From the NCBI GenBank assembly GCA_010405405.1, contig MU004231.1:2846401-2910400 (forward strand): 64,000 nucleotides of DNA, in the 5' to 3' direction. Position 1 is the first letter of the stretch; each line of letters starts with the position of its first letter. The stretch is from Microthyrium microscopicum. Taxonomy: Eukaryota. The notes under the pieces are model-generated. The model made no database searches, had not been told where the DNA came from, and saw only the letters and a program-made list of their open reading frames with translations. This document shows positions 1-41,833 of this stretch, piece by piece. The position numbers were made by a program, and so were the translations under genes.

Positions 1-422
1 TAATATGTACGACGCATGGTGTACTTGTGGTATTGTAGGATCCTAACCAAACTCAAGACTGTGCATTGCGGCACAGCTCATGCCAATCCATTGGCTGAAG
101 CGGCTGAAACCTCATACAGGTCTGGATGCTTGATTTAGATTTTGCTTTGGTACGTACTTGTATATATAATATGCTGCCTTCAAGAACAGCGCTCAATAAT
201 GAGAATGTATGTTAGCAAAACTAAGAGTACTTTTTGAATGGAAACTTAACGACAATAAAAGAAAATTCTTACGGCGTTGGTAGTGGATGGGCCGAAATCT
301 CAAAATATAGGAACAATGTAAGGCAGGAAGCGAAGCGCCGGTGTATGCATGTTGGCGCTACACAGCCTGACTACAGTAATTACTGTGCCGTACAGAACTA
401 GCTTCAGATGCTAACGTGGCAT

Positions 423-574
423 TATTGTAATGAAGAATATGCTAAGGGATTAGATAATCGTAGGACCTAATTAGAGATAACATAATCCCCTAATTAGCGT
501 GTCCTAAAAACTATATTAGGCCCTTAGACTTCTATAGTAATTAACTATGCTTTATTTCTTATATTCTTATAATA
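423..574 (+). repeat. 5' LTR of copy 1
   Basis: Matches 10211-10362, 32231-32382 and 41682-41833 apart from C>T/G>A changes; shared core taattagcgtgtcctaaaaactatattaggccc. Confidence 0.95.
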
Positions 575-1239
575 TCTAATAGTAATAATTTAATTTAATT
601 AAGACTTTTAGATAATAAACCTCTTATAGGAATCTCTAGATTTATCTTATTGTTAATAATTACTTAGGATTAATATCTAGTAAAATATACTCTAAGAATA
701 TTATTCCTTAATTAGCTAGCCTTATTATAGCCTAATACTTAGTAACTATATATTAGAAAATAATTCTTAGAATTTATATATAATAATATTCCCTACTATA
801 ATATATTTTAAAAATATCTTAAATTATTTTTAATTTAAACTACTACTTTAAGGATTATTAAATATATTATAAGAATTATCTCTTTTATAATAATATTCTC
901 CTTATCTTTATTAACTTTTATTACGTTAATTATATAGCTATTAAATAAAATATAGAAACTTTTCCTTAGAAAATTCCTTAAGATAACGTTATAGAAACTT
1001 TACTATATAGATTAAAGCTAATAAGTAATAATATAAACTCTTAGCCTTAAGTTATCTTAGGAAATTAGATTAAGATCTTATCTATACTAAGAAAGTATAA
1101 AAATTTACCTTAGAATAATTTCTTAACTTTAAATTCTATTTAACTAACTTTAGTATAGAAACTTCTAAATCTTAAGACTCTTTTCTTACCTTACTAAGAT
1201 TATATTCTTTATTAAAACTATTACTTTCTCTTTATTAAA

Positions 1240-2958
1240 ATAAATAACTAGTATAATAATATTATAACCTAAACTATAAGATAAGATACTTAGTAGGTAT
1301 AATACTAAGCCTAGGTTACTAACCTAAGTTCTTAAAATAAGTAACTTACTCCTATATTATTAAATAATCTTTTTAGTATACTAAATCTTAGTCCTAACCT
1401 TATAACTTAGATTACTAATATTTAGTAATTAGGGCCCTAAGCCTTAAACTATTCTACTAGTATATATTAAGTTAATCTCTAGACTATTAACTATTCTCTT
1501 ACTAAACTATAAACTCTCTCTTAGGCTTAGAATTATATTCTTAAGGAACCTAACTACGTTCCTTAGGCCTATAACTAAACTTTCTAACGTAATAATAATA
1601 AAAATTAGTAGTCTATAAATAGGTCTATTCTTTTCTAGAAAGCGTTATTTTACTCTACTACTAATAAGTAAATTAAATAAGATTATAGCTCTAAATCTAT
1701 AGAAAATATCTAATATACTTAGTAGTAAAAAATAGTAAATTATATTACTAAATTAACCTCTTATCTTAACGTAAGTAAGTTTACCCTATATACTTAAGAT
1801 TACTAAGTAAATAAAATTAAGGCTTATACTTAGACTTAGGCTTTAACCTAAAAAACTTTATAAATAGGTATTACTTACCTAGACTTTATAGGAAAGCTAA
1901 ATAAAGAGTTAAATAAGACTATTAAATTACTTTTTTAAACTTTTAGTCCCTAAAAACTTATTAAGATAATAAGGAACGTTCCTTAAGAATAAAGATAATA
2001 TTTAACTAAGTTTAAGATATTTTTTAATAGTTTATTCTCTAAGAAACTAAGTAAGTATAATACTTAAGCTAAGAGCCTTTTTTATACCTTTAAGGCTAAT
2101 AAGAATATTCTCCTATTAAATTTTACTCTACCTAAATAGTAGAAAATTACTAAAGTTAAAGAATATCTTCTTATTAAGTAACGTCTTCTATAGGCTAACT
2201 TAGCTTAGTAATAGACTATAGAGGAGTTTAAGATACTTAAAAGTTTATCTTACTTCTTTATCTATTTTTAACCTATATTTAGTATTAAAAAAGATATACT
2301 TAAGGTTAGTATTTAGTAAAATTATATATTATAAGTTTTATTTACTAAGGAATTTATTTATTATCTTTATATTCTATAGACTTAAATAAATTCTATACTT
2401 ACTAATTATAAAATAAGTATTTAAATCTAAGGAGGCCTTAAAGAATAGGTTACTCTTAAAGCTAAGTATAGGTATAGTACTATTCCTAACCTTATAATTA
2501 ATATTTTAGCCTTTAAATAAGAAATTATTAAATATAATATAGACTCTTATAGAAATATACGTAATACTTATAATATTTATAGGCTAAAGTAGCTTAATAA
2601 AATCTCTTCTAGTTTTAAGAAAGATAAAGAGCTTACCCTAAATACTAGTTTTAAAGAATATCTTAAGAAAGTTAATAGTAAAAGCTATACTAATAATAAA
2701 CTTAAGTTAGATAATAAAAATTTAGAGTAGCTTAATATTATAAATAGCTATAGTTACTATTCTAAAGAATAACGTAATACTTAATACTCTAAGAAATTTA
2801 ACTCTAATAAGAAGTTATATTCTTTTTATAAAAAAGACTCTAAAGATAGAAAAGCTCTTATAGATAATTTTAAACTTAAGTATTAGAATTATAGTAAACT
2901 TAGTTACTACGCTATAAATTATAAAAAGCCTAACTAGTAATAATAGAATTTAAAAAAC
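1240..2958 (+). pseudogene. gag: gag relic with CCHC zinc knuckle
   Basis: 2881-2922 de-RIPs to approximately C-W-N-C-G-K-x-G-H-Y-A-x-D-C. The likely start (aaaATA from aaaATG) at 1240 is in the same frame; the start position is inferred. Confidence 0.75.
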
Positions 2959-5900
2959 TACTATTATTAAGAAATAAATAAGAATCTTCTAACTTAGAAC
3001 TAGAATACTTTACTTATCTATATAATAATTAATAAGCTTTCTTTAACTATATAAGTAAATATAGTAATACTCTTTTATATCTATCTATTTACTTATATTA
3101 TAAAAATTATTCTATTAAGACTATAGCTCTCTTAGACTTAGAAGCTAATTCTATTTATATTAGTTAAAAGATTATTAGGAAACTTAAAGCTTCTATAATA
3201 CCTATCCTAGAGAAAGAAGTTACTCTTATAAATAGCTATATAGTTATAACTTTCCTTAGGATTTACTTACCCTATTATATTAAGACTTTTTATAGCTACT
3301 TTAAGGCTTATATCCTAAATATTCTTAATCTTAATATTATTTTTAGACTTTTATAGTTCTAGTTATATAATTTATAAATTAATTAAATAATAGAGCAAAT
3401 TAAGCTTATAGAGTAATACTTAGAAGGCCTTTATATTTATAAGCTTACTATAAAATGCTAGATAGAGCCTCTTTAGAATAAGGGAAGCTACTTAAAATAA
3501 ATAGAGTAGTTTATAGCTAGCTTTCTTTATATAATCTTTTAAGTATTTTAAAATAAGGTAAAAAAAGTAAAGAATAAAGTTAAGAGCGTTCTTTAGCTAA
3601 TTTAAGGAATATAGGAATAGCCTAATATTTTCTTAATAACTAATAACTTTAATATTAATAAACTTGCTCTAGAAGATAAAAATATATAGAAACTTTTAAA
3701 TAATTACTATAAGTCCTTTTATTATACTTTTCCTAAACTTTTACTATACTCTAAGTTTAATTATAAAATCCTTATAAAAAACGTTCCTCTTTATAACTAG
3801 GCTTATTATTAGATATCTAGCCTATAACTAGAAAAGTAGAAAAAGTAGATTTAAGAACTACTTACTAAAGGACTTATTAAAGTCTTAAGAAGTCCTTAGG
3901 GTTTCCTTATCTTATTTATATTAAAGCTAAGAAGAAAATAGAAAATATATATTAACTACTATTTACTTAATATAGTTATATATAAAGATACTTATTCTTT
4001 ACTATAAATTAATAAGTATCTTAATACTATTAGTAGAGTAAGATTCTTCTTTAAGCTTAATCTTCTATTAGGCTATTAGTAAGTCTATATAGTAAAAAAA
4101 GATATTAAGAAAATAGTCTTTAATACTAAGTCTAAGAAGTATAAGTTCCTTATTATACCTTTTAGATTAATAAATATACTATTATTCTTCTAGCGTATAA
4201 TAAATACTCTTCTCTAGCTCTTTTTATTAATTTATATAGTTATTTACTTAGATAATATTATTATTTACTTAAATACTATAAAGAAATATTATAAGTATAT
4301 TACCTAGGTTCTAAAAATCCTCTAAGATAATAAGCTCTATGCTTATCCTAATAAATACGTCTTTAGGGTTAAGAAGATTAAATTCTATAGCTATAAAGTA
4401 GGAAATTAGTAAATTTAACCCTTATATAAAAAAACTACCTTAATTAAGTCCTAGCCTATATCTAAGAACGTATATAAAGTATATTAATTCCTTAATTTTA
4501 CCTTATACTATTAGTAATATATTAAGAACTTTACTAAGATTACTACCTTTATCTTTAACCTTTTAAAGGAAGCTAATCTAGATATTAAAAAAAAGAAGTA
4601 CTACTTTATTACTTAGACCTATTAATATACTATAGCTTTTAATAGAATTAAGACTCTATTAACCTTATTACCTATTTTAGTAATATATAATTTATAAAAG
4701 CTTATAAAGCTCTAAATAGATACTTTAAATTATATAATTAGTTATAAGCTAGTATAAAAAAATAACTAAAGTAAATAGTACCTAATTACTTTTAATAGCT
4801 ATAAGCTAAGTAGAGCTAAACTTAATTATTTAGTATATAAGAAAGAGCTTCTTATAGTTAAGAATATAATTAGGAGATACTAATACTACTTTCTAGAGAA
4901 GACTACTAAGATAATTATAGATTATAATAGCTTATAGTATATAAATATAATTAAGAATAATACTTAACGTATTACTTAATAAATTAAAGAGTTCTAAGAA
5001 TTTAATCTTATCTTTACGTATTATAAAGGTTCTTAAGTAATAGTTCCTAATACTTTTAGTTACTACTTAAACTTTTAAGAAAAATAGATTAATACTATTT
5101 AAGAAATAAAGCCTAAAGATAATAATAATAACTTATCTTCTAAGGCATAAGCTACTTTATTAGAACCTTTATAAGAGTAGAAAGAATAGAAAGCCTTCTA
5201 TATATAAGGCTTATAAAAAGTATTAAAAAAGAAAGATTATACTATCTCTACTAGTATATAGAAGAGGCTTTAAAAAAGCGTTCTTAATTATTTTTAAATT
5301 AACCTTAATAAAGATATTAAAAAGAAATATAAGTATTTATTCTTAGAGAAAGATTCTACTAAAGCTAAGATACTTACTAGTTTACTCTATATTTACTTCT
5401 TTTACTATTAAAACCTTATTAAGAAAGTATATAATTAGTATAAGTATTTATTATATATAGGCCTTACTAGTATTCTTAAACTAGAAGGTTAGTAGCTAGG
5501 AATAAAGAATAACTTCTAAAAATTTACTTAGTTCTATCCTATATATTAAGTTTAATAGATAAATTAAAGTAGACCTAAGTATAGGTTCTACTATTAAGTA
5601 TAAAACCTATAACTATTTAAGGCTTAAGGAATTAACTTAATTAATAAACTTTTATAGAGTCTCTTTAAGAATTAGTATATTATCTATATAATTAACTATG
5701 CTATAGAATAGCTTATTATAGAAATAGTACTAAATACTACTATTCTTATAGTTATAGAATTTATTTATAAGAAAATTATCTTAGAATATAGTTCTTCTTA
5801 ATTATTAACCTTAGATAATAAACCTTAGTTTATCTTAGACATAATTTTATCTTTATTATAATAAATAAAGACTAAGTACTACTTAATAGCCCTATATAAC

Positions 5901-7460
5901 CCCTAGTCTAATAAGAAGGTTAAGAGATTTAATAGCCTACTAGGTATATTTTTAACTAAGTTCTTAAAAGAAAAACTTATAGCTAGCTAAGATCTATACC
6001 TAGATTAAGTAGTTTATACTACTAGGATATAAGCTTATACTATATTAAGAATATCTTTCTTCTTCTTTATTTATAAGAAAGATTCTAAGGACTTTAAAAT
6101 AAGCTAGGTAAAGAAAAATAAATAAGCTAAATTAACTAGTATTATACCTCTTATCTACGTAATTATAAAAAATTACCTAAAGAAGGTTAAAACTACTAAG
6201 TAAGTCTATTATAACGCCTTATTAAAATAAGCTATAGCCTTAAACCTTATTAATAGTAATATAATTTTAAAAAAAGACTTTATTATTAAGTTCCCTATAG
6301 GTTCTTATATACTCCTTAAAAACTTAAATAAAACTAAATTCTAAGTAGCATAGTTTAGCCTTTATAAAGTCTTAAAGGCTTACTCCCTAAGAATATATAC
6401 TTTTAAGATACTTAATAAAAGAATACTTAAAAACCTTATCTATAGGAATTACCTTATATAGGTATATATATAAGAAGAAAATAAATACTATTACTAAAAC
6501 TAGCTATACCTTAAATATAAGTAATTAAGTAAAGATAACCTTAAAAGTATTCTAGATAAAGAGTATAAAAATAAAATAGATATATTTACTATAATTAAGA
6601 AAGACTAGCTTAATAGATTAAGAAACTTTTTAATAAAGTTAATTAATATTAAAAAGTCTAGTACTAGGAGATATTACTTAAGTCTATCTACTATTCCTCT
6701 TAACCTTATAAGAAAAGTTTAAAAAGCTAAAGTAAATATTTATAAATAAGAAAAGAAACATCTTATAGTAACTATTTATAACCTAAATAGTAACTTAAAG
6801 ACTCTTATAGTATTAAAATATATTCCTCTTAATCTAATTCTAGCTTTAGCGTAAAATAACTTAGAATAGATAAAGTAAATTATATAAGAAGTAGAATATT
6901 CTATAGTATTATAAAATCTAGTAAGGAAAAAAAATAATAATATTTTTATTCTCTTAAATTAAAGCTTAGTAAGGAAAGAAATCCTCTTAGCTATAATAAA
7001 TTAAGAATTAATCTTTATATTACTAGAATAATAAGAGTAAGGAGATAAATTATTAAAGCTAAGAAGCTATAATAAAATTACTATTTTAATTACTTATATA
7101 CCTATACTAGAGGTAATAAATCTATATAAATAAGTATCTAATCCTAAAGAAGACTATTAGGGTATTAACTCTTTATTACTAGATACTATAAAAGTAGAGG
7201 TTCTTCTTATAAATTATCCTAAACCTAGTCTACTATAAGAGATAAATATAACTAAAGGATTCTTATAGAATACTAATATATTTAGGCTAATTATAATACT
7301 TAGTAGTTTTATACGCCTTAGTACTAGCTTATAATATTTAGAATTAAGATAAAGATAATAAAAGGCTACTTCTAGATAAAAGATTATCTTATATATAAAT
7401 ATAAGTAAGGTACCTATAAGAAAAAAAAGAAAAATTAACCTTTTATTATCTCTTTTATAA
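2952..7460 (+). pseudogene. pol: pol relic (protease, RT, RNase H, integrase)
   Basis: De-RIPed motifs: ALLDSGA (~3126), SPWGFPILF...CIDY (~3890-3960), FSKLDLLSGYWQ (~4045), YLDD (4245), TDASD and NYPVHEKELL (RNase H, ~4715-4855), WGIDL, SDNGPQF, PQSNGKVERFN (integrase, ~5625-5935), WFGPY (~6350). End position approximate. Confidence 0.9.
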
Positions 7461-7714
7461 CTTTTCTTAATTATATTTATTTAAGAAAACTATTTATAAG
7501 AAATTACTTTTATTTATTATTAATTTAAGTAAACTATTATAAGTAATAATAACTAAAATTAAATCTTTAAATCTTCTTAGTAATCCTTAAGACTATTACT
7601 AAAGTTATTTAAATATAATAAGCTATCTCTAGATCTTTCTAGTAATCTTTAAGACTATTACTAAAAGCTTTCTTATAAAATATTTAATAGTAAGAAATAA
7701 GAAACTTAAATAAC

Positions 7715-9559
7715 CTAAATTCTTAAGCTAATCTACTACTTTTTAGTTTTAAAGTAACGTAAGCTTAATACTGCTTTTCTCTATTTCTTAAAAAATAACT
7801 AACTCTAAGAGTCTAGTTCTATTTCTTTCTCTATATAAGTAAGCTAATATACTTCTTCTTTACTAGAACTAAATATAGTTAGTAAAGCTTTTAAATAACC
7901 TAAAGATAGTGTAAATAATAAGCTATTAATAAAGTTATAAATAGAAGTAATAAGTAGTCTAGTAACTACCTATATTAATTACGTAGTATTTATACTTACC
8001 TTCTTTATTATAAATAAGTAATCTTATTTACTATTTAAGGCATAATTTATATAAGCCCTATTAAATATAAAATTACTTTTTATATTCTAGAAGACTATAT
8101 AATTATACTAAGTAATAACTTCTTTATCTAAGAGCTTAAGTATATAGTAGCGTTTATATTTATTATAACGCTAGTTAGGTTAGTAATCCTAAATATAAGC
8201 TATAGCTACTTATAGCTTATTACTACTAGATAGTAAGTTAGTTATTATTATAATAGCTAGCTTAGTCTAAGTAAGACTATACTTAATATAATACTTAAAT
8301 AATACTAGAATCTCTTAGAGGATTTTAACTCTTTAATTCTAAAGATCTTATAGAACCTAGATAAGCTTATTCTAAGTCTCTTTCTTATGTATTTATAGCT
8401 AGTAGTTTAAATAGATTAATTAACTATTTACTATAGTATAAGCTATATTATTAAGCAAATGCTTATAAGTCTACTTATTAAGCTTCTTTAAGAAAGCTAA
8501 ATAATAACCTAAACTAAGCTCTACCTTAATTTAAGGCTTAAGTAAAGTCTTATATATACTACTTTGCTTCTTTATAGGCTAATATAATAGTATCTTTACC
8601 TTTTCCTTACTTAAAGACTTAACGTACTCTAGTTTATTCTTAAAAATATTTAAGAAGCTAGTCTTACTAACTATATACTTATATACTTATAAAATATTAT
8701 AAGTTTACTTTAGCTTAAGTATTATATAATAGTAATAGCCTTAGCTATGCTCTTAGTTAATAACCTAATATAAGGTTATTTTAAAGTATACTAAGCTATT
8801 TTAAATATACTAGAATATATCTTTTACTACTTAAACCTAGGAATATATTATATCTTACTCTATATATATTTATATAGAATTAAGTAGTATAGTATTTAAG
8901 AAGTTATAGTCTAAACTAAAGGTATTAGTAATATAAGTACTAAATATTATAAATAGCTTAATCTTATTTTAATCTAGGAGACTTATTTCCTAAAGCTATT
9001 AAAGCGTTACCTATATTAGAGTATTCTTTTTAATAAAACTTACTTTTCGTTTAGGTATCTCTTAAGTAGCTTACTTATAAGCTAATTTCTACTAGTAAAA
9101 GAACTTACTCTTTAGAATTAAAGGATATTATCTAAATATAGGTAATTATTTATAAGATTATCTCGTCTTAGAATTAACGTTATAGTAGCTTATAGAAGCT
9201 TACTAGTAAGCCTTCTTAAGAAAAGAATTTAGATAGCTAATACTCTATTAATAACTAAATCTAGCTAGAGAAGGTAAAAAGTAGTTATTATTATTCCTTA
9301 TGCTTAAAAATCTTAATATATTATCTTATTAGCTATAAGCTTTAGTTAGAGAAGATAAACGTATAGGTATATTTATAAATAATTATAAACGTTCCTTAAA
9401 ATAAGGTTAAGTAACTAGACTTAGAGACTAAGTAATAAGACTTAGAGCTTATTATAAAGATTTAGCTTAATTATACTAAGCTTAAAAAACTTAAGAGTAA
9501 GTACTATGCTTTTTAGACGTCTTTAAAGATAATATAGTTAGCTTAGTATAAGGAGCTAT
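7715..9559 (-). pseudogene. RIP-mutated intronless antisense accessory ORF A (~615 codons), unknown function
   Basis: Minus strand begins agaATA GCT CCT (ATG GCT CCT, MAP...). One frame carries RIP-resistant codons (GAG, AAG, GAC, GCT, CGT, ATC, TTC) throughout, and in-frame TAA/TAG can be explained as CAA/CAG/TGG/CGA after RIP. The stop position is uncertain (7715 or 7706). Confidence 0.7.
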
Positions 9560-10201
9560 TCTAAAGAGCTCTTATAATTAAGAGCTTAAAAAGAATTAAG
9601 GATTAAAGAAAAGAAATATATAGAGCTACTTATACTTAATAATATTAAAAGTATAAAAGGAAATCTACTTTTACTAGCTTAAAGTATTATAGAAGTATAA
9701 TAAAAAAGAAGAAAAGAAGATAATAAATTATAAAGCTTTATAAATATAGGATTAAGCCTTTATCTTATATTTACTTAGACTAGTAATTACTATCTAATTC
9801 TTTATTACTACCTATATATTACTTTTTATAAACTTTACTCTTTAAGGCCTTAAAGTATAGGTTATATATATTCTTTACTAAATTAAGTAGTCTTAGTATA
9901 CCTATATAAATCTCTTATAATTTCTTAATTTACTATTACTAATAGCCCTTACGTAAATAAACTTTCTTAAAAGAATTAAGAACTATAAACGCTTAAGTAT
10001 TATTTATAATAGTTTAACCTAAATCTTAAGAAAAATCTTAAGAAGATAATTCTTTAGAAATTACTTTATAGCATAGCTAGGGTAATAGTCCTAAATCTTA
10101 AATAAAGATTCCTTATTAGTTATTATAATATTTTTTTTATTTTACTTATTTATTAAAGTTACGACTATAGGATTTATAATCTTAAGAGAGTTTATACTAG
10201 T

Positions 10202-10210
10202 AAAAGAAGA
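10202..10210 (+). other. Polypurine tract of copy 1
   Basis: aaaagaaga abuts the 3' LTR; copy 2 has aaggaagaa (41673-41681); most-G consensus AAGGGAGGA. Confidence 0.75.
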
Positions 10211-10362
10211 TATTATAATAAAGAATATACTAAGAGATTAGATAATTATAAGACCTAATTAGGGATAACATAATCCCTTAATTAGCGTGTCCTAAAAACT
10301 ATATTAGGCCCTTAGACTCCCGTAGTAATTAACCACGCTTTATTTCTCATATTCTTGCAATA
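10211..10362 (+). repeat. 3' LTR of copy 1
   Basis: Direct repeat of 423-574, followed by TSD GGCAT. Confidence 0.95.
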
Positions 10363-11396
10363 GGCATTCACCCCGGCACATCACTTCTCTAATACAACTC
10401 AACTTCATCCTGCTTAGCATGGTATTAAGTGCTTGTCACCTACTCTAGTATACCTGTTATGAATACCAGCGGATAGGTGATTGGAAGCAGCGATTCAATT
10501 GCTGCAAATTCATGATGTTGGGATCCGAAGTATGCGGCCCATCTAATGTGAAGTTCAGCGAGCCTGAAATTACGATGCGTCTCGTGGCCATTGGCATTGT
10601 CATTCGAGGAGCAAGTGCCTGGTACGTTACCAGTCACGACTCTGAGGACATCAAGAGCATGGAACATGTAGTTGCCATCATCTCAAGACAACTGGGGGTT
10701 TGGCCTCAAGAGCTAAGGGCTAGGATGGATGTATCAAAGGACTTTTGTAAGTGTAAGTTGTTCGATTGAGCATTCAACAAGATATCATTACAAGTGAGTA
10801 CTGTACAGCCATCAATCATCGCATCTCAGAAAAAATATCAAGATAATCATCAACAGTCCACCATTCAAGAATGAGAAGCAGAAACACGACTGACGGTACA
10901 GACAAGACTCCAAAACAGACTTTCTAATCTTTCCATTTTGGCTAGGAGGACTATACATGAAGATCTAACCTGATCTGTGGTTGTTGACCCTCTCCAATAT
11001 CCAAAATGCAATCTGCAAGCAGCTGAACGACAGAGACCTGTATTGCGCCAACAGGTCCTTCATGACAGTTGTGGGTTCAGATGACTTGAAGTCTCTCAAC
11101 TCAGACAATATACAATAAACAAGAAGCTGCTCCAAGCATGACTGCTGTCTCCAAAGGGGTATCCCTGTGACTAAACGCGACAAGCCTTCCACACCAGGCT
11201 CGAAGAATAAAAAGCAACACCAGGTTCGCGGCGAACAGGACTGGAGTCCCTTTCGCCCCTAAATATGTACCTGCATGGTAAAGAAGACTCATGTCCATCC
11301 GGGGATATGCCAGAAAAAAATAAAGTTACAAGAAGATGTGACCGCTAAGTGATGACAGGAAAGAATGCTCGTTCTGATTTGAAAACCGGTCCACGC

Positions 11397-12140
11397 CTAG
11401 GAGCGCATGTGGTTGTGACGACGCATATGATCGTGTACATCACGAGCAGCGATAGCTGGCTCTCGGACGGCGAGCTTCTTGACGAAGGTGGTAGGAATTG
11501 CCATTGGCGCATCCATCTTGACAACTGGGCCCTGGGTCACTGTTGGCGCTGCGGAGCTGACTGGTGCGACTACAGAGGATACGGCAGCCGGAGAGGCAGA
11601 AACAACAGGTGCGGCGGCAGCGGGAGCAGCAGCGGCTGGTGCACTCGATGTAGTGGCGCAAAGATAGAACGAGATATCAGCGGTGGGCGCGCATGAGAGG
11701 GAGTTCCAGTCATCATTGTAGAGTTGGTAGAATCCGTTGCAGTCGGTGCCAGGTGTGCAGGTTCTGTTTGGGCAGGACGATACTGATGTTTCCATATGGA
11801 TACCGTCGTTGTAGAATGGGCAGTCGGTACCCGTGCAGTCAACGTTGGAGCCATCGTACCAGATGAAGCCTCCGGCGGAAGTGTACTCAAATTGGGTAAT
11901 GGGCTTTGGTGTTGTGGTCTTTGAGAGCTTGAGAGAGACACCTCCAGAGGAGAGAACCTTGTACGCCTCGGAGTAACTGGCACCGGGAGCGATGATTGTT
12001 GGAGTTTGAGGGTTCCGTAGCATATCAGTAGCCCATAGATAGACCGGAACAGAGCAGCGATTGTAGATATTGGCAGTTCCAGCAGCCGAAACAATAGGAG
12101 CAGCAGCAGCAATGGCTGCAATAGTAGCGATGAGTTGCAT
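11397..12140 (-). CDS. Secreted Bys1-like (thaumatin-fold) protein with Ala/Pro-rich tail
   Basis: Signal peptide; N-R-C-x-x-P-V-Y-L-W, GGVSLKLS, ITQFEYT and IWYDxSNVDC motifs typical of the Bys1 family. Confidence 0.8.
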   Translation of the reverse strand: MQLIATIAAIAAAAPIVSAAGTANIYNRCSVPVYLWATDMLRNPQTPTIIAPGASYSEAYKVLSSGGVSLKLSKTTTPKPITQFEYTSAGGFIWYDGSNVDCTGTDCPFYNDGIHMETSVSSCPNRTCTPGTDCNGFYQLYNDDWNSLSCAPTADISFYLCATTSSAPAAAAPAAAAPVVSASPAAVSSVVAPVSSAAPTVTQGPVVKMDAPMAIPTTFVKKLAVREPAIAARDVHDHMRRHNHMRS

Positions 12141-14125
12141 TTTGATTTGTTCTAGTCAGGAGAACGTGATTGTGAGTGGTGTATAAAATTGGTTTGTTGG
12201 ACAGGGAGTGTGATGGTAGATGATCCTTAAGGAATGGACGCTTTCAAGAAAGCAGTAGATGTTGGACAGCAAACCGGTCGAAAGTCGTGATATGAACGAG
12301 TGTAGCAGTAAACAGGAAAACGCGGAAGAGAGACTGCTGGGATAAAGAGGAAAACGCGCGGTATGATAGTCAACGGTGAAGGGGGAACAGCTAAGGAAGG
12401 GGCTCGCGTTGAGCTCCATCTTTTCCACTACTCGAGGATTTTGCTGTGGAACTGGTGAGAAAAGGTTCATGCTTCGAGAGACTAAGAGGCCTGGTTGCGC
12501 AGCGAGGCGTCTACTAGAAAGCGCCACAGATGCTTAAGATGAGCAGCCTACCCAATGAGGCATGGTGTTGAGCTTTTGACAGCTTGAAAGGGGCTGGCAA
12601 GGAAATGAGAGCATCACATTACGGGGGCTGTTGAAGGCCAATGGATGATTTTGTGAAGACTTTGGAGCGCTAAAACATTAGATTCGCATCTTGTTTGTTC
12701 TATTTCTTTCCAGTGTCTTGAGCGTGTTGCGCTGTCACTGGAGTTGATGTTGAACACGTAGGAAATGCGATTGCAGTAGCTGTTTATCACTTCTCCGTAC
12801 GTTGTGCAGCTTGCTATACTTAGCCTCAAACATAGCCTACAGAATTTGCGCCTTAACTTTTGCAATGGAGAATGGAGAAACTTGGGTGGAAAATTGCGAT
12901 GCTGGGTTGCATTCGGTTGTGTCGTGGTTGAGGTTCAGGGGCAGGGACTCAGGGAGAGTTAGTCAGGGGAAATTAAGAGGCGTCGAAAAAATCCCGGTAC
13001 CTGGTGGACCCCACGCTTCTGCTGCTTGTACCCACCAACGGGATCGCTTCCTTTTACAGGCATCTTTCTTAAAAGAGTTAAAGTCTCCACTCAAAGAGAG
13101 AGGCTCAGAGACTGGCTGGAAGCCGTTGGATGATGGCTCTCCAGGAGCGGTTGCTCTGCCAGGTCGCGACGGGCCTTGATCAATCGCAACCACAGCAGTC
13201 TTCCTTCTTCCAAGTAGAGAGTAGAGAAGCCCCTCTCATTTCCCTATGGTAACCCCCCATAATCACAGAGAGTCTGAGACTCGGAGCCAAAGGCGTGTGC
13301 TGAGGCATTGGCACTCTTGATAGAATCTGGTGGCATTTTGGAAAGCGTTTACTGAGTATCAAATCGGATCGTGTGTTGCCAATGAACCGCGAAGTTGCCA
13401 GCGCAGACCATTAACTTCACTCACCACCAATGCGGTTAAAGATCTTGAAAACGTTGGAAAACAAAACTGGTCAAACAAATTATGGACTCCACGTGCTGTC
13501 TCCTGGCTGCAGGTACCGTAATCATGAAACATCTGTTGCTCGCTGATTTTTTTGGCTGCGACTGCATTTCGCCTAGAATATTCCAATATCTCCAAGCAGT
13601 ACCCAGTGAGTTCAGCAAGGTGGCTGATTCTGTTACAGACACGAATAATGCATGAAGATCATATAGAGCCTGATATCCAACAGTTGCGATATGTCACAGT
13701 ACAAGCCTGGACATTTCGTACTTGCCAAAAATAGCTCGGAGAAGTCTTCTAGAAAACTGAGATTGAATGCCAACCACCTCCTCGGGTTGGTCGGATCATA
13801 ACTGTCGTCCCAGTGTTGCACCGTTACACAGCCTAAAGATATAATCGGAACAAACTAGCGAGGGTGTAGTAATTCTACCGGAGAATGAAAAAGCAAGGGA
13901 GACATGGGAAGTCACACTTGAGCAATAGTCGTCGCATGAACCGAGTTCTTCCGGACTCAAGACATTTTCCACGTTCAAGATTCGAGCAAAGGTCAAAATG
14001 CAAAGACAATGATGTGAGCGGGTTTATCGACCCACGGCTAGGACTGCATTTGTATTGGTTTTTTGCTACACCGCTATGGTGCCTAAGGTACAATACTAAT
14101 GTTACCCATCGATTACATCTTGCGC

Positions 14126-17660: not shown

Positions 17661-18714
17661 ATGGCGGCGAACAACTCCAAGCTTCAGGCAACAACCCAGA
17701 GCTCGCCTCAGGGAGCCAGTGCTTACGTTGATGTTGAAGCGTGGAATAGCTCAACTCTCAAAGCTCTCAACGGCCTGAGTTTGGCTCCAACCCGTCCCAT
17801 CCGAGGCGCTTCTGTCTCCTTAGCTATCTCGCTCGACGATAGCGCGCCAGCTCCCGTTATCAAGGCAGATGATAGCGACGATGAAGGAGCTGAGCAAGCC
17901 ACCACAGGCTATCCTCCTCTGCGTCGCAAGACAAGCCGACGCGATAGCATGCGTCGACGCGATGAGCTTTTGAAGGGCAAGGAAGGGAGCCGTCGTCGCC
18001 AGAAATGGGAGAACGGTACGCGAGCTCGCGAGCTTTGACGAATCCTATACTGATGATTATTGTTTGGTAGACCACCTTCTTGGCAATCCTCACGTCCAGC
18101 CTCCACTTCCTACCGATTGGGAAGTTCGTCCAACGTACCCAGTTCGCACCGTCCCATACTATCTTGCCACCCTCTGGGATGCCAAGCGTGCCGAGGAAGA
18201 ACGCGTCGCTGCCACTCGCAAGAACAAACCTACCAAGCGCAAGGAACTTTCCCAGCCCGAGGGATTAGGTCGCGTGCCAAAGGGTCTCAAGGACACAATG
18301 AAGCGTCATCGCGCTGCAAAGACTCTTCTCCAGGAGCTCGAGAACGAGATTCGCGAGTTTGTTGTTGCCATGCACGAAGGTGGACAGGTGCCAGACGATG
18401 CTGGGATTGAAGTCGATGCCGATGACGATGATTTTGTGCTGGTCGATGAGAAGACGCTGTCACCAATCATGAGCCATTTCCCCACCTATGAGAAACTCAT
18501 CTTTGAAAGTCCAGAGACCGACCAGTCTGCGACATTCAGTCGTTGGCTTGTGCATGCGTTGGGCAAGTACTACGGCTTGGATTCCTGGAGCGTGAGTGTT
18601 CAAGGCAAGCCAGCTCGCCGAGAGGCATATGTCGGTATCAAGGACGTCAAGTTGAAACGAACCTGTCAACCAAGCATGGGCAGTTTACCGCTGCCAATGT
18701 GGGCAAGAGTTTGA
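17661..18714 (+). CDS. R3H-associated N-terminal domain protein (one intron, ~18016-18070)
   Basis: RRDSMRRRDELLKGKEGSRRRQKWEN-DHLLGNPH..P.PTDWEV; C-terminal R3H-like RWLVHALGKYYGLDSWS. Confidence 0.85.
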
Positions 18715-20255: not shown

Positions 20256-21792
20256 ATGCGTAACGTCAAAAGCGTTCCAATATACGACATTGATTTCACT
20301 CTCCGACGCACGTTTCGCAAGAAAAATTTCAGGTGAGCAACACAAGCATACCGTGTAATTCAATCTAACTATTAGAAGAACGCTACAAAGAGAAGTCATT
20401 CTAGCAGCGCTAAGTGGCGAAGATGTATACCTACAAGCTGCCACATCCTTTGGAAAGAGCATATGCTTCCAGCTTCCCGCGGTCGTGAACTTGGGCGTAA
20501 CTATTGTCGTCTCTCCGCTGCTCTCCTTAATGATGAACCAAATCAACGCGCTTCGAGAAAACAACGTACCGGTAGAGACGATAAATGGAACAACTCAGTA
20601 TCATGAGCGGAAGAGAATTATTGACGATGCCCAATGCGGCCATCCGCGAGTCAAAATGCTTTACGTTACTCCAGAGTTGTGCAGTCGAGACTGGTTTCGA
20701 GACTTGCTTCGATCAATTCACGCCCACGGTCAACTTGCCAGATTCGTTGTCGATGAGGCACATTGCGTCAGCCAATGGGGCCACGATTTTCGTAAAGATT
20801 TTCTTGAGCTGTCATTCTTCAGACGAGAGTTCCCCGACATTCCAATCATGTGCGCTACAGCAACGGCGACAGCGGTTGTGCGAAAAGACATCATCAATAT
20901 CATGGGGCTGGATGAGAAACTTAAATTCTTTGCAATGCCCACTTCTCGGCCGAACCTTCATTATGAAGTTCGATTCAAATCGGATGAATTCGATGAGCGC
21001 TACACAGACTTTCTACAGTGGATACGCCAAATCTACGCTAGACGGCAAGGAACTGCCAGATTAGAAGAGCTTCAAAAGACTAAAGAGCGAGTGGAAGGTG
21101 TGAGTGGTATAATATACGTTATCAGCCGTGAGGGCTGCGAGAACTTGGCCGAACGACTTTGCAACGACGGGATCGGAGCAAAGGTCTATCACGCCAAACT
21201 CAGCAATGACGCGAAGAAGGATCATTTGGCGGGATGGATCTCCAATCGGCCTGGCTACGATATCATCGTTGCTACAACTGCCTTTGGCATGGGCATCGAC
21301 AAGGAAGATGTTCGATTCGTCGTGCATTGGCAGCTACCGAAATCATTTGAAGGCTTCTATCAAGAAGCCGGCCGAGCAGGTCGAGATGGGAAGGCGAGTA
21401 TATGCATACTCTACTATGCCCTGGAAGATCGGATATGGCTTGAGAGAATGATCGAAATGCAAGCGGCGCAGAATCAGAAAAAGAAAAGCAGTACAGCTAG
21501 AACGGAGAACATTGAAGGACGGCGGAAAAGTTTTAATCAACTCGTCAAATACTGTGAAAAAACGACCAAGTGTCGGCATCAGATCATAGCGGACTACTTT
21601 GAAGACAAGCAGAAACCCGTTTGTGATTGGGCTTGTGACTGGCACAAAGATCCATCAAAGCTTCAAAAGGCCAAGAAAAGATTCGATGCGACAGGCCTCA
21701 CTCCTTCCATGTCCCAAGCTATTGATAACCATCTAATGGATCATCGCCAGACCATGGCAAATACAGATCTGGAGTGGGTTGCTCAGGATTGA
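20256..21792 (+). CDS. RecQ-family DNA helicase (short form: helicase core plus Zn/RQC)
   Basis: Exon 1 ..DIDFTLRRTFRKKNFR, intron, then AATSFGKS, LYVTPE, VDEAHCVSQWGHDFR, ATATA, VATTAFGMGIDK, YQEAGRAGRDG, C..CRH..CDWACD. Confidence 0.93.
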
Positions 21793-26780: not shown

Positions 26781-28139
26781 TTAAAGCGCGCCGTATCCGA
26801 GTGCCATGTTCTCGTGGTTCAAAGGACAAGTTCCGCCCTCAATTAGAAACTCTTTCAGCTCTGGCCAAAGACTATCCCTGAGATCTGGCCATATTTGCCA
26901 ATGCTCAGCATACGGCTCGGTTTGTCCCCACAAGTTCCCACTAACGTCTGCATCCTGCAGGTTCATTGTCTGCTGAATAGTAGTCAAAAATGTTATCCAC
27001 GAACTGTCAAGGGTGATTCCCTCTAACACAAGTTCCCTAAAGGTGTGATGGTGCTTTGCTGCGAACGACAAAAATTCGCTGCTTTGTATGAGTACGGTAC
27101 TGAGCTCCAGATATTGAAAACGAGGCCATGTTCCATTTTTGTCGAAGATATCATCGAAGCTCGCCCCACATGTTCCGTCTTCGTCGCGGTAGTCGAAAGT
27201 CACGGACAGCTTCTCGAGGTTTGGTAAAGCTTTAATAAAACGGCGTAAATGTCCGTCTTCCATAGCCTCGCTACATTCGGTAGCTTCCAGGCCTTCGAAC
27301 TCAAATTCATCCCGACCTCCTTCTTCCGTAATTCCTGCAAGCTCTTCTCTCAGTTCTTGAACCTCAGTTATACCAAGGCTCGTTGTGATCTGCAATACAA
27401 GAGTTGTGAGGTGGGATAAACTGGGCAGCACATGAGACAGATCCGACACCGAGAACTGAGGAAAGAATCTCCAGCTGATGTAGCCGACTTCAAGCTCTTT
27501 CAGCCGCGTTTCTGACTTGACTACAGCCTTGAGCAGGGCATTGAGATCCGACACTCCCAAAGGATCCGATATTTCGCCCAAATGCGCACCCAAACTGTGT
27601 GCGTCCCAGGGACTATTGTGATAACTGATTTGAGATGTCAGAGAGATTGATTCCAAGTTGCTGAGTTTACTGAGAGCAAAGGTCCAAACATTGTGGTGAA
27701 TCTTGTTGCGAAGGATCACATCCTGAGTAATCGCAGTGGCTCTATAGACCTCATATTCTTCTTGCAGATTCCTCTTCGGGCGCGGCCTGACCAGACCTTT
27801 CTTTGCCAGGTTTTTTCTGATGAGTAGCTCATTGATTTCTTGCATGCGAATCTCACTCTGCTCAGCTTTGGCGACGTGTTCTTCGTTTGAAAGGACTGGA
27901 TCCATAAGGCCATCGATGTCCAGACGTAGCGATCGTACGGCCTGACTGGCGGCTTGATGAGAGGCCAGCTCCGAAAGCCTAAGAAGACTACGGTGATGTA
28001 AGTAAGCCACAGCGTCTTCGAATAAGTACTCCAGTCCAATTTCCGAAAACTGCCAGCAAGACAGCCTAAAGTTTGCAATATCTGCTGGGTCCAGACATCG
28101 GACAATCATGTGCATAAGTTCAATGGGGAAGGGTGTCAT
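26781..28139 (-). CDS. F-box domain protein with LRR-like C-terminus
   Basis: 452-aa ORF; N-terminal FPIELMHMIVRCL...DIANFRLSC..F F-box-like motif; LxxLxL repeats. Confidence 0.75.
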   Translation of the reverse strand: MTPFPIELMHMIVRCLDPADIANFRLSCWQFSEIGLEYLFEDAVAYLHHRSLLRLSELASHQAASQAVRSLRLDIDGLMDPVLSNEEHVAKAEQSEIRMQEINELLIRKNLAKKGLVRPRPKRNLQEEYEVYRATAITQDVILRNKIHHNVWTFALSKLSNLESISLTSQISYHNSPWDAHSLGAHLGEISDPLGVSDLNALLKAVVKSETRLKELEVGYISWRFFPQFSVSDLSHVLPSLSHLTTLVLQITTSLGITEVQELREELAGITEEGGRDEFEFEGLEATECSEAMEDGHLRRFIKALPNLEKLSVTFDYRDEDGTCGASFDDIFDKNGTWPRFQYLELSTVLIQSSEFLSFAAKHHHTFRELVLEGITLDSSWITFLTTIQQTMNLQDADVSGNLWGQTEPYAEHWQIWPDLRDSLWPELKEFLIEGGTCPLNHENMALGYGAL

Positions 28140-29043
28140 GATTGATGGTGTTCCTGCGAAGCTGAAATTTTTGAAGCTGTGGTGAGCTCAGAGGCTGGTT
28201 TTGAAATTCGATTGCGAAGGAAGCTTTTTGAGATTCATAACGGAAGGATTCCTCAATCGGTCTTATATACGCCAAATGAAGTCGAGTTGTTGTTGGGAAC
28301 TCAGGGACCGTACCGTAGGGTAGCGACGCGCTCCACACGCGTGGTCCCCTGAGCTGAAAACGCCGCGCACGTAATGATGATCATGGATGAAAGCTCCATC
28401 GAGATTCAAGATGTCTATCACTTGGCCCTTGAATTGCCAACCATCAACCGCCATCAGAGCATTCTTGGAATCCCACACAAAAGTTGGCAGGGAGAACGCC
28501 TTGGACGCCTTTGCCCCTTCTCTGGCTAAGCAGGTCTTTAGACCTAAATCACGAAACATCTTGAACTTCAGCATACCTAGTCGCACAATACAGCTCAATC
28601 CTCGTCCTGATAATTTGGAAGCTAGCTGAAATTGAGCTGTTCCTTCATCCTTCCACTCGAGTTGCCTCAAGGCGCAAAGTTGTTAGAACAATGATCTTGA
28701 TTCAACAATGACACCTGCCGCTCACAACATTTTAAGCTCGCCTATCCACGAAAGTTTGCGATTCAAATTAAATGACATTCAAGGCAGGTCGAGCCTGAAA
28801 GAGCATTGATGGCCAAAGCGGTCACTGTCCTTGCCTGCAGCACCCGATTACCTAGCAAGTTCCGCAGCACTTGAGCCAGAAGCATATAATGATTTATTAT
28901 CTACCAAATACAAAGTAAGTCGCTTCAAGATGTGATGATGCGATAGTCCCGAGTCTCGCCTGAATAAAGTATGTATATTTTCGAGATCTGTTGTTATATC
29001 GTAATGCGTAACACAAGACCGAGATGTTGAGATAATGCCGATT

Positions 29044-30476: not shown

Positions 30477-32230
30477 AAGTGAAGACTTGGTACGAATTAA
30501 GTCTGGAATTTTGAGGCAGTCGGGGAAGAGTGAAACACAAACTCTTGATATCTAGAATGAAGCCAAAGTGAGATTCAGATCTGCGCTATATGTGAGATAG
30601 TGCTAGTGAATGGAATGACCCGCCTTCAAATCGAGATGGCGCCTCTACTTCGATAGCGGGCGCCCACAAGGGAACTAATGAATAACAGATCACTTCGAAC
30701 GTGCCTACATGTCACAAAAAAACATGACAAGAGGAAACAAGAAGAAAGAAATCAGACCCCAGCTGGGTTTCTACCTTCTCAATTTGGTACCTTTGTAAGA
30801 TCCTCATTTCTCTCTCCACCAAGAAGCATCACCAAGAGTGATGCAAGCTTGGTTTACCCTTGGACAGCTCAGCCACCCGAGCAGTTGCTTGTTACTGTAT
30901 AAATGTCCCTGATAAAACAGTTTTGGTGGTCCGATTATGGACTTGATAAATCATTGATTGGGCAACAGAGATCCTGGAGGAGATATCGGACAGCGTTCTA
31001 CTAACCTGTTCAATTGGAACGCTTGAGCCCGATCCACGCCTATCTAATCCAGCCCGGCTATCGAGCGATTTGAATCTACATAGTGATGAGACCTGGCAGT
31101 TCATAGGCTGACTTGCAGCAGCAGTCACAATCCATGTCGGAGCTTGGCTGAGCCGAAGCAGACCGCTCAGTCGTGAGTTCTACCTGCTGGTGGAACAACT
31201 ATCGTCGTTGTTGGCTCCTGCATAGTGAATAGTGTGCAACCAACGTCTGTTCGGTCTGCGGGAGTGCAGATCTCCGATTTTTAGCTTAATCATTCGCAGC
31301 TTTGAACTTAGAGGAAAGCAGGACTACGACTAACAGTACTGAGCGCTCCACATAATGCTCTTTTGCTTCGACACCCGATCTAGTCTTGTGACTTGGTACC
31401 TCTAATCATTAATGATACGATCAGTCACAGATGGACGATTGACCTGTTTTACCTGTATAGTTCGTGAAATAGCCATCGCTTACTTGCTTGGAGTTTTGGA
31501 CAATCTCAAAATGAGAAGCTCCAATGGTTTAGGACTCTTCGACCATAAACAGAGCAGGACGTTTCCTGTTCATGAAGGTACCGAGCAGATTACACTGTGA
31601 GTCTGGCACCTCTATGAAGTGCACGTCACCCTTGCGAGTGTTTTCTGATTCCATGGAAGCCTCGTTGTTGGACGTCATCTGGGTTGACCAACCATTCGAC
31701 GCTTCTATGGCGAATTAGCGAAAGAATGGTGGCACCGCGTTCGCGCTAAAACTTACCGTACTTTGGGATTTCGGCCCTTCCCATGGCTACTTGAAGTTCG
31801 GCCTGCGTTACAAACTGATAATTCGAGTTTACAGTAAAACCTCCTCAATTCCAGGTGGTGACTACTAGGCGGTAGAGATATACATTTTGATGAATTGTAC
31901 GAGCAGATGCACCACGACGATCTCCCAATCCGAGAAAGTCTCTTTGGCATCACAGACACTTCCATTATCCTTTACATATCGTAGAACCAATCATCGGGCG
32001 CGCGATGGGGTTGGTGATGTTCAGCCTTGAGGTTCTGGAGAAAGAGCTTGGAGCCATTTCAGGACGTAGCCGACGGCGTGGCACGCTTAGCGTCCTGCGG
32101 CAAGAACCGCCTAGCTACTAATTCAACCAATCTATTGGTTACTATGCAGAACTAGTGATGCTTTTCCCAGATTTCCTGGAAATTTCACGCGAGAAACCTG
32201 CTACGTGGGAACGGTAAGATCGCTCGCCAT

Positions 32231-32382
32231 TGTTGTGATGAAGAACATGCCAAGGGATTAGATAATCATAGGACCTAATTAGGGATGACATAATCTCCTA
32301 ATTAGCGTGTCCTAAAAACTATATTAGGCCCTTAAATTCTTGTAGTAATTAACCACGCTTTATTTCTTATATTCTTATAATA
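32231..32382 (+). repeat. 5' LTR of copy 2
   Basis: 152-bp repeat beginning TGTTG. Confidence 0.95.
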
Positions 32383-33046
32383 TTTAGTAGTAATAATTTA
32401 ATTTAATTAGGACCTCTAGATAACGAACCTCTTATAAGAATTCCTAGATTTATCTTATTATTAATAATTACTTAGGATTAATATTTAGTAAGATATACTC
32501 TAAGAATACTATCTTCTAATTAGCTAGCCTTATTATAGCTTAATACCTAGTAACTATATATTAGAAAATAATTCTTAGGATTTATATATAATAATATTCT
32601 TTACTATAATATATCCTAAAAATATTTTAAATTATCTTTAATTTAAACTACTACTTTAAGAATTATTAAATATATTATAAGAATTATTTCTCTTATAATA
32701 ATACTCTCTTTATCCTTACTAACCTTTGCTACGTTAATTATATAGCTATTAGACGAAATATAGGAACTTCTTCTTAGAAAATTCCTTAAGATAATGTTAT
32801 AGGAACTTCACTATATAAATTAAAGCTAATAAGTAATAACGTAGACTCTTAGCCTTAAGTTATTTTAGGAAATTAGATTAAGATCTTATCTATACTAAGG
32901 AAGTATAAAAATCTACCTTAGAATAATTTCCTAATTCTAGATTTTGTCTAATTAACTTTAGTATAGAAACTTCTAGACCTTAAGACTTTTCTTCTATCTT
33001 ACTAAGATTATACTCTTTATTAAAACTATTACCTCTTTTTACTAAA

Positions 33047-39000: not shown

Positions 39001-39267
39001 GTAGAGGTTCTTCCTATAGATTATCCTAAACCTAGTCTACTATAAGAGATAGATATAACTAAAGGATTCTTATAGAATACTAATATATTTAGGCTAACTA
39101 TAACGCTTAATAGTTTTATATATCTTAGTACTAGCCTATAATATTTAAGATTAGAATAAAGATAGTAAAAGGCTACTCCTAAATAAGAGATTATTCTACG
39201 TATAGATATAGGTAAGGTACCTATAAAAAAGAAAAGAAAAATTAACCTTTTATTATCTCTTTTATAA
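33047..39267 (+). pseudogene. gag-pol relic of copy 2
   Basis: Same motifs as copy 1: zinc knuckle at 34688, ALLDSGA ~34933, YLDD ~36052, integrase ~37430-37740. Confidence 0.9.
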
Positions 39268-39528
39268 TCTTTCCTAATTATATTTATTTAAAAAATTGTT
39301 TATAAGAAATTACTTTTATTTTATTATTAATTTAAGTAAACTATTATAAGCTATAATAAATAAGCTAAATCCTTAGATCTCTCTAGTAATCCCTAGAACT
39401 ATTACTAAGGATATTTAAATATAATAAGTTATCTTTAGATTTCTCTAGTAATCTCTAGGACTATTACTAAAGTTTACCCTTTAATAAATTAATAAGATAA
39501 GACTAAGAAATATAGGAATATTAAAGAA

Positions 39529-41037: not shown

Positions 41038-41681
41038 TTTAAAAGCCTTAAGAAGTATAAATAGTAAGTTTTAAGTAGGGAGAATATATAAAGTTACTTA
41101 TATTTAATAATATTAGAAGTATAAGAGGGAATCTACTTCTACTAGCTTAAAAATATTATAGAAGTATAATAAAAAAGAAAAAGAGAAGATAATAAATTAT
41201 AAAGCTTTATAGATATAGGATTAGGCTCCTATCCCTATATTTACTTAGATTAGTAATTACTACCTAGTTCTTTATTACTACCTATACGTTACTTTTTATA
41301 AATTTTATCTTTTAAGGCCTTAATATATAAGTTATATATATCTCTTACTAGATTAAGTAGCCTTAGTATATCTATATAAACTTCTTATAATTCCTTAATA
41401 TATTATTACTAATAGCTCTTATATAGATAAATCTTCCTAAAAGGATTAAGGAGCTATAAACGTCTAAGTATTATTTATAATAATTTAACTAAGATCTTAA
41501 GGAAAGTTCTTAGGGAATAATATCTTAAAGGTTACTATCTAGTATAACTAAAGCAATAAACCTAATTCCTAGGTAGAGGTTCCTTATTAGTTATTATAAT
41601 ATTCTTTTTATTTTATTTATTTATTAAAGCTATAGTTATAGGATTTATAATCTTAGGAAAGTTTACGCTAGTAAGGAAGAA

Positions 41682-41833
41682 TATTATAATAAAGAATATG
41701 CTAAGGGATTAGATAATTATAGGACCTAATTAGGGATAATATAATCCTCTAATTAGCGTGTCCTAAAAACTATATTAGGCCCTTGGACTCCCGTAGTAAT
41801 TAACCACGCTTTATTTCTCATATTCTTGCAACA
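41682..41833 (+). repeat. 3' LTR of copy 2
   Basis: Ends TTGCAACA; preceded by the PPT and followed by the TSD. Confidence 0.95.

Follow-up and report, generated by a model that had tools for sequence, protein, structure and literature searches.

Does a stretch of fungal DNA that has been saturated with point mutations still hold the remains of a gene, and on which strand did that gene run? The question is raised by positions 7715-9559 of a 64,000-nucleotide stretch from Microthyrium microscopicum (assembly GCA_010405405.1, contig MU004231.1, positions 2,846,401 to 2,910,400; this whole stretch is called the window, and its numbering is used throughout). The fungus, a Dothideomycete, is a leaf-litter saprobe. 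An initial annotation of the sequence had described here an antisense open reading frame (ORF) of about 615 codons, hidden by RIP (repeat-induced point mutation), and had taken it for the gene of an element-encoded accessory protein. We find that the segment is the 3' internal part of a complete, RIP-inactivated 9.9-kb Ty3/gypsy long terminal repeat (LTR) retrotransposon (423-10362), and we think it somewhat probable that it is the relic of an antisense additional ORF which the element encoded between pol and the 3' LTR. The idea of an element-encoded accessory protein thus survives in the form of an antisense gene relic, the best reading in view of the codon periodicity, the start context and the parallel in a second cassette of the same family, and loses the read-through argument on which it had been built.

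The retrotransposon, referred to below as copy A, is built in the order LTR, gag, pol, spacer, cassette, shared region, polypurine tract and LTR, where "shared" means shared with a second full copy (copy B) located in the same window. The parts of copy A and the features of the segment in question are as follows.

418-422: left target-site duplication, GGCAT, identical to the five bases at 10363-10367, directly outside the LTRs
423-574, plus strand: 5' LTR, 152 bp, RIP-mutated, a direct repeat of 10211-10362 with 89% identity
1000-2800, plus strand: gag-like coding relic in frame +1 (codon start coordinate mod 3 = 1)
2900-6900, plus strand: pol relic in frame +0, with RNase H at 4629-5003
6900-7665, no strand: spacer after pol, shared with copy B and lying within the 89.5% A/B alignment
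7666-9614: cassette A, 1949 bp, without a blastn match in copy B or in the rest of the window
7715-9559, minus strand: the frame claimed in the initial annotation, 615 codons with 67 stops
7920-9000, minus strand: core with supported coding-like signal in the claimed frame, about 360 codons
8012-8098, minus strand: the sole stretch similar by BLASTP to the cassette B frame, NRAYINYALNSK as compared to NNAYTNYMFNSK
9551-9565, minus strand: start island, TTTAGAATAGCTCCT, which reads ATA (from ATG) GCT CCT, i.e. M-A-P
9615-10198: shared region, 86% identical in copy B and located upstream of the antisense start
10199-10210, plus strand: polypurine tract, AGTAAAAGAAGA, read from the sequence directly 5' of the 3' LTR
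10211-10362, plus strand: 3' LTR
10363-10367: right target-site duplication, GGCAT

Membership of the Ty3/gypsy group is indicated by the direct LTRs and target duplications of both copies, and by a pol gene with reverse transcriptase (RT), RNase H and integrase, whose order was judged from the domains of homologues. An RNase H of the RT-linked type was recognised on the plus strand by Pfam (RT_RNaseH_2, 7.4e-15; RT_RNaseH, 4.9e-14), and the pol read-through matched 13 pol proteins of Ty3/gypsy elements (E<=1e-5, the lowest being 5.1e-39), which carry RT, RNase H and integrase domains (PF00078, PF17917/17919 and PF00665/PF17921, respectively). On the RIP-mutated sequence of copy A, Pfam misses RT and integrase themselves. 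The gag relic gave no match in the Pfam search, and its position in the element suggests its identity; when the codon model trained on pol (see below) was applied to 1300-2800, frame +1 scored 13.7 and the others at most -24, and 0 of 300 shuffles reached 13.7. After the 5' LTR a primer-binding site is not recognisable after RIP.

The segment 7715-9559 is in a state of RIP saturation. The TpA/ApT ratio is 1.88, (CpA+TpG)/(ApC+GpT) is 0.06, and the dinucleotides CA and TG have nearly gone (2 CA and 8 TG among 1844). With CA and TG almost absent, the stops in all frames are confined to TAA and TAG, both compatible with RIP, and because saturated RIP removes TG, TGA is missing from all frames. 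Since TAA and TAG can be reverted to CAA, CAG or TGG, any frame "needs no frameshift", and the earlier statement that neither a frameshift nor an intron was needed over this length is an empty one: all frames here can be read through with Q or W in place of the stops. The letters that had been quoted for the minus-strand frame from 9559 to 7715 are correct (IAPYTKLT..., EYVKSLSKEKVK, EKEIELDS*), and the 67 stops among them are 36 TAA, 31 TAG and 0 TGA. The helical and charged look of the translation cannot be taken as a property of the protein: its contents of L (14%), I (11.5%), K (10.9%) and Y (9.3%) equal those of RIP-mutated pol and so reflect AT-rich codons. Counting stops was also considered as a test of reading frame, and was rejected: it fails on gag, where the model-supported frame has about 10% stops and a shifted frame has fewer. 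Over gag 1300-2800 the frames with the fewest stops are +2 and -1, the model-supported frame being +1. Where coding DNA follows an A-A-T codon pattern and is saturated with RIP, it is the frame shifted by one base that has the fewest stops, so stop counts mislead.

Codon-position statistics were more informative. The chi-square for nucleotide by codon position over 7715-9559 was 29.9 (p 4e-5), a value reached by one of 500 shuffles and comparable to that of the equally long 3' half of pol (29.6) and of the cassette of copy B (cassette B, 29.6). What the claimed frame has beyond chance is a three-base periodic, coding-like codon composition. By codon position this frame has A at 0.42/0.43/0.34 and T at 0.35/0.35/0.43, and is poorest in G at position 2; the pattern matches that of the sense strand of pol (A 0.46/0.45/0.34, T 0.32/0.38/0.42). 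Tandem repeats, tried as a source of the periodicity, were discarded, as they amount to mere micro-repeats of 2-3 copies with periods of 8-21.

Codon log-likelihood ratio (LLR) models were trained separately on RIP-mutated pol, on gag and on cassette B, and under all three the claimed frame was the best of the six. The models trained on gag and on cassette B also recovered the pol and gag frames. With the pol-trained model the claimed frame of cassette A scored about -10.7 and the other frames -33 to -55; the gap between the claimed frame and the second best over the whole region was 22.8, which none of 300 shuffles reached. The signal is concentrated in the core: at 7900-9099 the LLR was 8.1 as compared to -12.2 +/- 3.5 in shuffles (0/300 reached it), and in sliding windows of 100 codons the claimed frame was positive at centres 8070-8670 and about 0 up to 9000. 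The flanks behave as non-coding DNA. In the spacer 6900-7665 there was no coding signal (best-frame LLR -12.2, equalled by 290 of 300 shuffles), nor was there any in 9615-10210, the score of which was reached by 160 of 300 shuffles.

The second copy of the family carries a different cassette at the same place.

32231-41833, plus strand: copy B, the second full member of this family, flanked by a separate target duplication, GCCAT (32226-32230 and 41834-41838)
39472-41082, minus-strand frame: cassette B, 1611 bp, 537 codons of which 41 are stops; its putative start is the ATA at 41037-41035

The two elements align with 89.5% identity over 7247 columns from 420 to 7665 of copy A, and again with 86% identity from 9615 to 10367; what lies in between, 7666-9614 in A (1949 bp) and 39472-41082 in B (1611 bp), does not align to each other at all. 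A loosely scored blastn comparison of the cassettes gave about 58% in all registers and on both strands, i.e. composition only, and neither of them is repeated elsewhere in the window. The junctions are sharp at both sides. In three contigs of the source sample the match to copy A stops at 7665, and what follows is the first 30 bases of cassette B, differing by two transitions. Both versions sit in elements with normal target duplications of their own, and the replacement of one cassette by the other between fixed junctions is real. The coding-like signal of cassette B lies on the same strand: under the pol-trained model frame -1 was the best at 10.9, the others scored -34 or less, and 0 of 300 shuffles reached 10.9. 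The LLR of this minus frame is positive almost throughout 39690-41070, and the fewest-stop frame, with 41 stops, compares to 55.6 +/- 4.4 in shuffles (3/500 reached it). As the signal of cassette B is stronger than that of cassette A and extends over nearly its full length, B offers the better basis for reconstruction. The ends of copy B are less mutated and read TGTTG...CAACA, the TG...CA ends of LTRs. The target duplications GGCAT and GCCAT of two independent insertions are similar, which may hint at a target preference.

The minus strands of the two cassettes cannot be aligned from about 50 nt inside the right junction onward, save for one island, TTTA[G/A]AATAGCTCCT, found at 9565-9551 in A and at 41043-41029 in B. 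There is no other site for this 15-mer in the window, where 0.05 would be expected; as the pattern was derived from these two sites, the informative part is that it is missing from the rest of the window. RIP turns ATG into ATA, and the island contains ATA GCT CCT in the supported frame of both cassettes. Its de-RIP reading, CAAAATGGCTCC, would be a good start context for a fungal gene. Hence a start at 9559, as had been assumed in the initial annotation, gains support from an island that is common to both cassettes and in frame.

It is interesting to ask whether the cassettes are related beyond this island. A BLASTP comparison of the two read-through frames gave one match, with 14 of 29 residues identical (E 0.022); its distance to the end of the stretch compared is 99 residues in A and 98 in B. 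In Smith-Waterman alignments of all 36 frame pairs (mean 77.7, standard deviation 20) the two highest scores belonged to a plus/plus pair (140) and to the minus/minus pair (128), both of which share the supported codon boundaries; the minus/minus score was reached by 2 of 200 residue shuffles. When the thirds were compared separately, the supported pair was the best in the C-terminal third (z 2.6, reached by 2 of 100 shuffles) and had the highest score in the middle third (z 1.6). We regard these alignments as weak evidence that A and B may share a deep, register-preserving homology. The shared motif contains Y-x2-Y. As the C-x2-C of the element's own integrase zinc finger now reads Y-P-I-Y, the Y-x2-Y may, by this comparison, be a RIP-mutated C-x2-C.

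How common the cassettes are was judged from assembled sequencing runs. About 1600 contigs of one run cover 5000-10400 at a likeness of at least 80%, and their differences are nearly all transitions (1115 places, as opposed to 19 places with transversions, in run X3); the family is therefore high-copy and RIP-mutated throughout. Statements on variant sites refer to the 40 listed among about 1250 variant places. Per listed site 5-10 contigs were found at most cassette A sites and 7-26 in the shared parts, contig depth not being the same as copy number. In the run of a second organism, two contigs fall in cassette A, at 7876-8053 (20 of 178 letters differ) and at 8093-8271 (11 of 179 differ). 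One contig in each of two source-sample runs skips 248 bases inside cassette A (8685-8934), and a deletion variant of the cassette therefore exists among the copies. Likewise, one contig of each of two source-sample runs joins 10360 back to 10211, so some copies have tandem LTRs, or two elements share one LTR.

Searches for relatives of the putative product gave no match. Pfam returned nothing at E<=10 for the cassette frames and nothing besides RNase H for the full six-frame read-throughs; phmmer returned nothing at E<=1 from the PDB for either cassette, and nothing at E<=0.001 from 1.84 billion protein representatives for the claimed frame, a library in which the presence of brtn (see below) was not established. 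A word-based protein search with cassette B found no match, none of 125 pattern matches in metagenome contigs was confirmed, and an exact 52-nt stretch of the pol tail had no match in metagenome contigs. The specific functions that had been offered for the product, a silencing suppressor of the VANC type, a toxin/antidote or a mycoviral protein, gained no evidence from this work (no Pfam, PDB or library match, at a sensitivity that is low after RIP).

Another possibility is that the coding relic is real without being a dedicated accessory gene: part of a host gene, or of some other mobile element, would have been captured in reverse orientation, either by transduction or through an old nested insertion that one subfamily came to carry as a fixed trait. 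Template switching or transduction would be expected to leave just such a picture, with sequences that do not align between identical junctions. We nevertheless consider such a capture rather unlikely: no host or transposon protein was matched, while the RIP-mutated pol of this element finds relatives at 5e-39, and the two cassettes have the start island, the orientation, a similar length and a collinear C-terminal motif in common. Moreover, cassette A is present on several contigs per site and in the run of a second organism, and both cassette types reside in elements with target duplications of their own.

Several observations speak against an antisense gene, and have to be set against the evidence described so far. 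The claimed frame does not stand out by its stops: the six frames hold 66, 80, 83, 67, 74 and 92, the claimed one 67, and 26% of 500 dinucleotide-preserving shuffles contain a frame with 66 or fewer. For the whole region the LLR lies below zero, at -10.7, a value attained by 17 of 300 shuffles. Over 9150-9560, approximately the first 140 codons, the claimed frame scores -10 to -13, as compared to 2 to 3.6 for frame +1 and about -1.5 for frame -1, and over 7715-7900, the last 60 codons or so, no frame stands out. In the comparison of the cassettes the plus pair (+2,+1) scores higher than the minus pair (140 > 128), i.e. the A-B comparison is blind to strand, and in the N-terminal third it is frame -1 of A, not -2, that fits cassette B best (z 2.0). 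At the 14 listed variant sites of the cassette no variant removes a stop in any frame; no intact copy of the cassette was seen, all the copies seen being RIP-mutated. The AT skew, to which we return below, is a slight pointer, as the non-coding spacer has +0.068, like pol. Finally, homologues are absent from Pfam, the PDB, the protein representatives and the metagenome contigs. This last point has little weight, because Pfam at E<=1 also misses the element's gag, the protease/RT start and integrase. Of the unbroken 615 codons that had been claimed, the sliding LLR thus supports a core of about 360, and does not support the first 140 or so and the last 60 or so. This could reflect a pair of indels in copy A, an intron or an atypical N-terminal region. 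As a separate observation, there is a weak coding-like signal on the plus strand at 9200-9500 in frame +1 (LLR 1.5 to 3.6 per 100 codons), where the claimed minus frame scores badly; it may stem from noise, from a portion of the antisense gene that has shifted frame or from a small ORF in sense orientation.

The points listed above could be taken together to mean that there was never a gene in the cassette. Fast-diverging non-coding 3' regions are common in LTR retrotransposons, and the periodicity would then be an accident of inspecting six frames; stop counts which are as in shuffles, a whole-region LLR reached by 17 of 300 of them, a signal on just about 55% of cassette A and the lack of a homologue in the databases searched would all fit. 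Against this stand the core LLR and the frame gap, neither of which was reached by any of 300 shuffles, the agreement of three separately trained models, the flanks, which as non-coding DNA give no signal, the independently stronger signal of cassette B on the same strand, and the start island, in frame in both cassettes. On balance we think it unlikely that no gene ever existed here.

A gene on the other strand has also to be weighed, namely a sense ORF3 or an env-like gene after pol, in frame +2, which uses the same codon boundaries as the claimed frame. This frame has 66 stops, as few as the claimed one, in the core it ranks second, at about -2 per 100 codons, and the plus pair heads the comparison between the cassettes. 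An env-like ORF3 would be expected on the strand of gag and pol; however, over 7715-9559 the minus frame is favoured by each of the three codon models, with a lead of 23 to 68 log units, and in cassette B the minus frame is ahead of its plus partner by 48. Furthermore, the island gives a start only when it is read on the minus strand, and the plus-strand AT skew, which is +0.03 to +0.06 in gag and pol, is reversed in the core of cassette A (-0.037) and in cassette B (-0.070). A plus-strand gene therefore seems to us very unlikely.

We thus return to a relic of an antisense ORF as the favoured interpretation. Its position is that of the antisense ORFs known between pol and the 3' LTR: after pol, whose signal ends near 6900, come the cassette (7666-9614) and the polypurine tract (10199-10210). 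Coding capacity opposite to gag-pol is suggested in the core, where codon usage and periodicity favour the minus frame, a frame that holds 67 stops. The gene would have started at the ATG-GCT-CC context (now ATA) at 9559 and run toward pol over roughly 400-550 codons, with its end near 7900. Transcription would have been driven from inside the element, by an antisense promoter in the 0.6 kb of shared sequence that separates the ORF start from the polypurine tract, which makes 9615-10198 a candidate promoter region, and the transcript would have ended in the shared spacer after pol. Two or more widely divergent versions of the gene, in cassettes A and B, are present in this family in elements that are otherwise about 90% identical, and a protein would have been made from it. 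By analogy only, the gene may have influenced how the element itself was expressed, or silencing by the host, through a regulator that bound nucleic acid or worked in the nucleus, or through the antisense RNA as such. In this genome the antisense gene is dead.

One can go further and imagine an exchangeable antisense-gene slot, with fixed flanks (the promoter and terminator sides) and a fixed start context, occupied by at least two divergent alleles of which the C-terminal Y-x2-Y alone is alignable. Allele divergence of this degree, in elements that otherwise share about 90% of their sequence, would suggest an arms race with host defence, and the product would then be a candidate counter-defence factor, for example against RNA silencing or against the targeting of RIP or heterochromatin. 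We put this forward as a speculation with a small chance of being right.

As for its surroundings, the window has a G+C content of about 47%, except for two blocks of about 10 kb at about 21%, roughly 400-10400 and 32200-41800. These two RIP-mutated blocks are separated by an island of about 22 kb with normal G+C and host genes, among them the following.

11397-12155, minus strand: gene of a Bys1-domain protein
17974-18714: gene of an R3H-associated domain protein
20359-21789 (gene entry 20359-21792): exon of a RecQ helicase gene, 100% identical to an NCBI protein of Microthyrium microscopicum (63% for the next best match), which places the window in this fungus or in a nearly identical strain
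26781-28187: gene of an F-box protein

A 1322-nt contig from a run which we guessed to be RNA (X6) matches 10288-10400 without a difference, on the minus strand, and extends rightward; it looks like the 3' end of the neighbouring minus-strand Bys1-domain gene entering the 3' LTR of the dead element. In the region compared, this run covers only 10216-10400, and among the runs listed as containing the segment none is on record as RNA.

It is worth comparing the putative gene with known antisense genes of LTR retrotransposons. Zhao et al. reportedly described in 2011 (Virology 417:248) such an additional gene, brtn, in Boty-like Ty3/gypsy retrotransposons of Botrytis cinerea and Sclerotinia. In two other papers, brtn is given as the antisense gene of Boty in Botrytis and Sclerotinia (PMC8365987, PMC7264820), and one consensus is said to lack the start of brtn (PMC8365987). 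Antisense ORFs between pol and the 3' LTR (aORF-3R) are listed there for maize Grande (gene23), rice RIRE2, Silene Retand and Phaseolus PvRetro13 (PMC7264820). Such ORFs are without database relatives (PMC7264820), and their function is unknown; nuclear localisation, and regulation through the protein or through double-stranded RNA, have been proposed (PMC7264820, PMC8365987). The retroviral antisense genes HBZ of HTLV-1 and ASP of HIV-1 are named as a comparison (PMC7264820). By position and orientation the cassette A gene is a probable further member of the antisense ORFs between pol and the 3' LTR, a precedent which the initial annotation had overlooked.

The nearest counterpart is brtn. 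As far as the accessible text goes, it too is an extra gene on the opposite strand between pol and the 3' LTR of a fungal Ty3/gypsy element, belongs to no known protein family and has variants that differ between subfamilies. On the other hand, the host of Boty is a Leotiomycete and ours a Dothideomycete, all copies seen here are RIP-mutated, and the likeness is judged from position and orientation. The plant aORF-3R, again by the available portions of the sources, resemble the cassette A gene in position, orientation, lack of database homologues and a long region between pol and the LTR, and perhaps also in occurring in many copies of a family. They differ in belonging to Tat/Retand lineages, some of them with a nuclear protein that has been shown or with an SMC-like domain, and two unalignable versions within one family of about 90% identity are not described there; nor did we find such a pair between fixed junctions in the accessible literature on aORF-3R and brtn. 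With HBZ and ASP the parallel is a minus-strand gene, for which a role in regulation has been proposed, in the 3' part of an element that uses reverse transcription; these are transcribed from the 3' LTR of animal retroviruses, have no link in sequence or structure to the cassettes and serve as an analogy only.

Antisense extra genes are, in the accessible text, widespread in plant LTR retrotransposons, none having a known function, and Boty brtn is the single case described in fungi. The present locus also carries a lesson of method: in RIP-saturated DNA, stops read as Q or W prove nothing, while codon models built from the element's own mutated pol still recover reading frames. If our interpretation is correct, fungi would provide another case beside Boty, in a class distant from it and with two alternative versions of the gene in a single family, the slot between pol and the 3' LTR would be a recurrent one in gypsy elements, and, next to the plant elements and Boty, these retrotransposons would provide a simple system for asking what antisense extra genes do.

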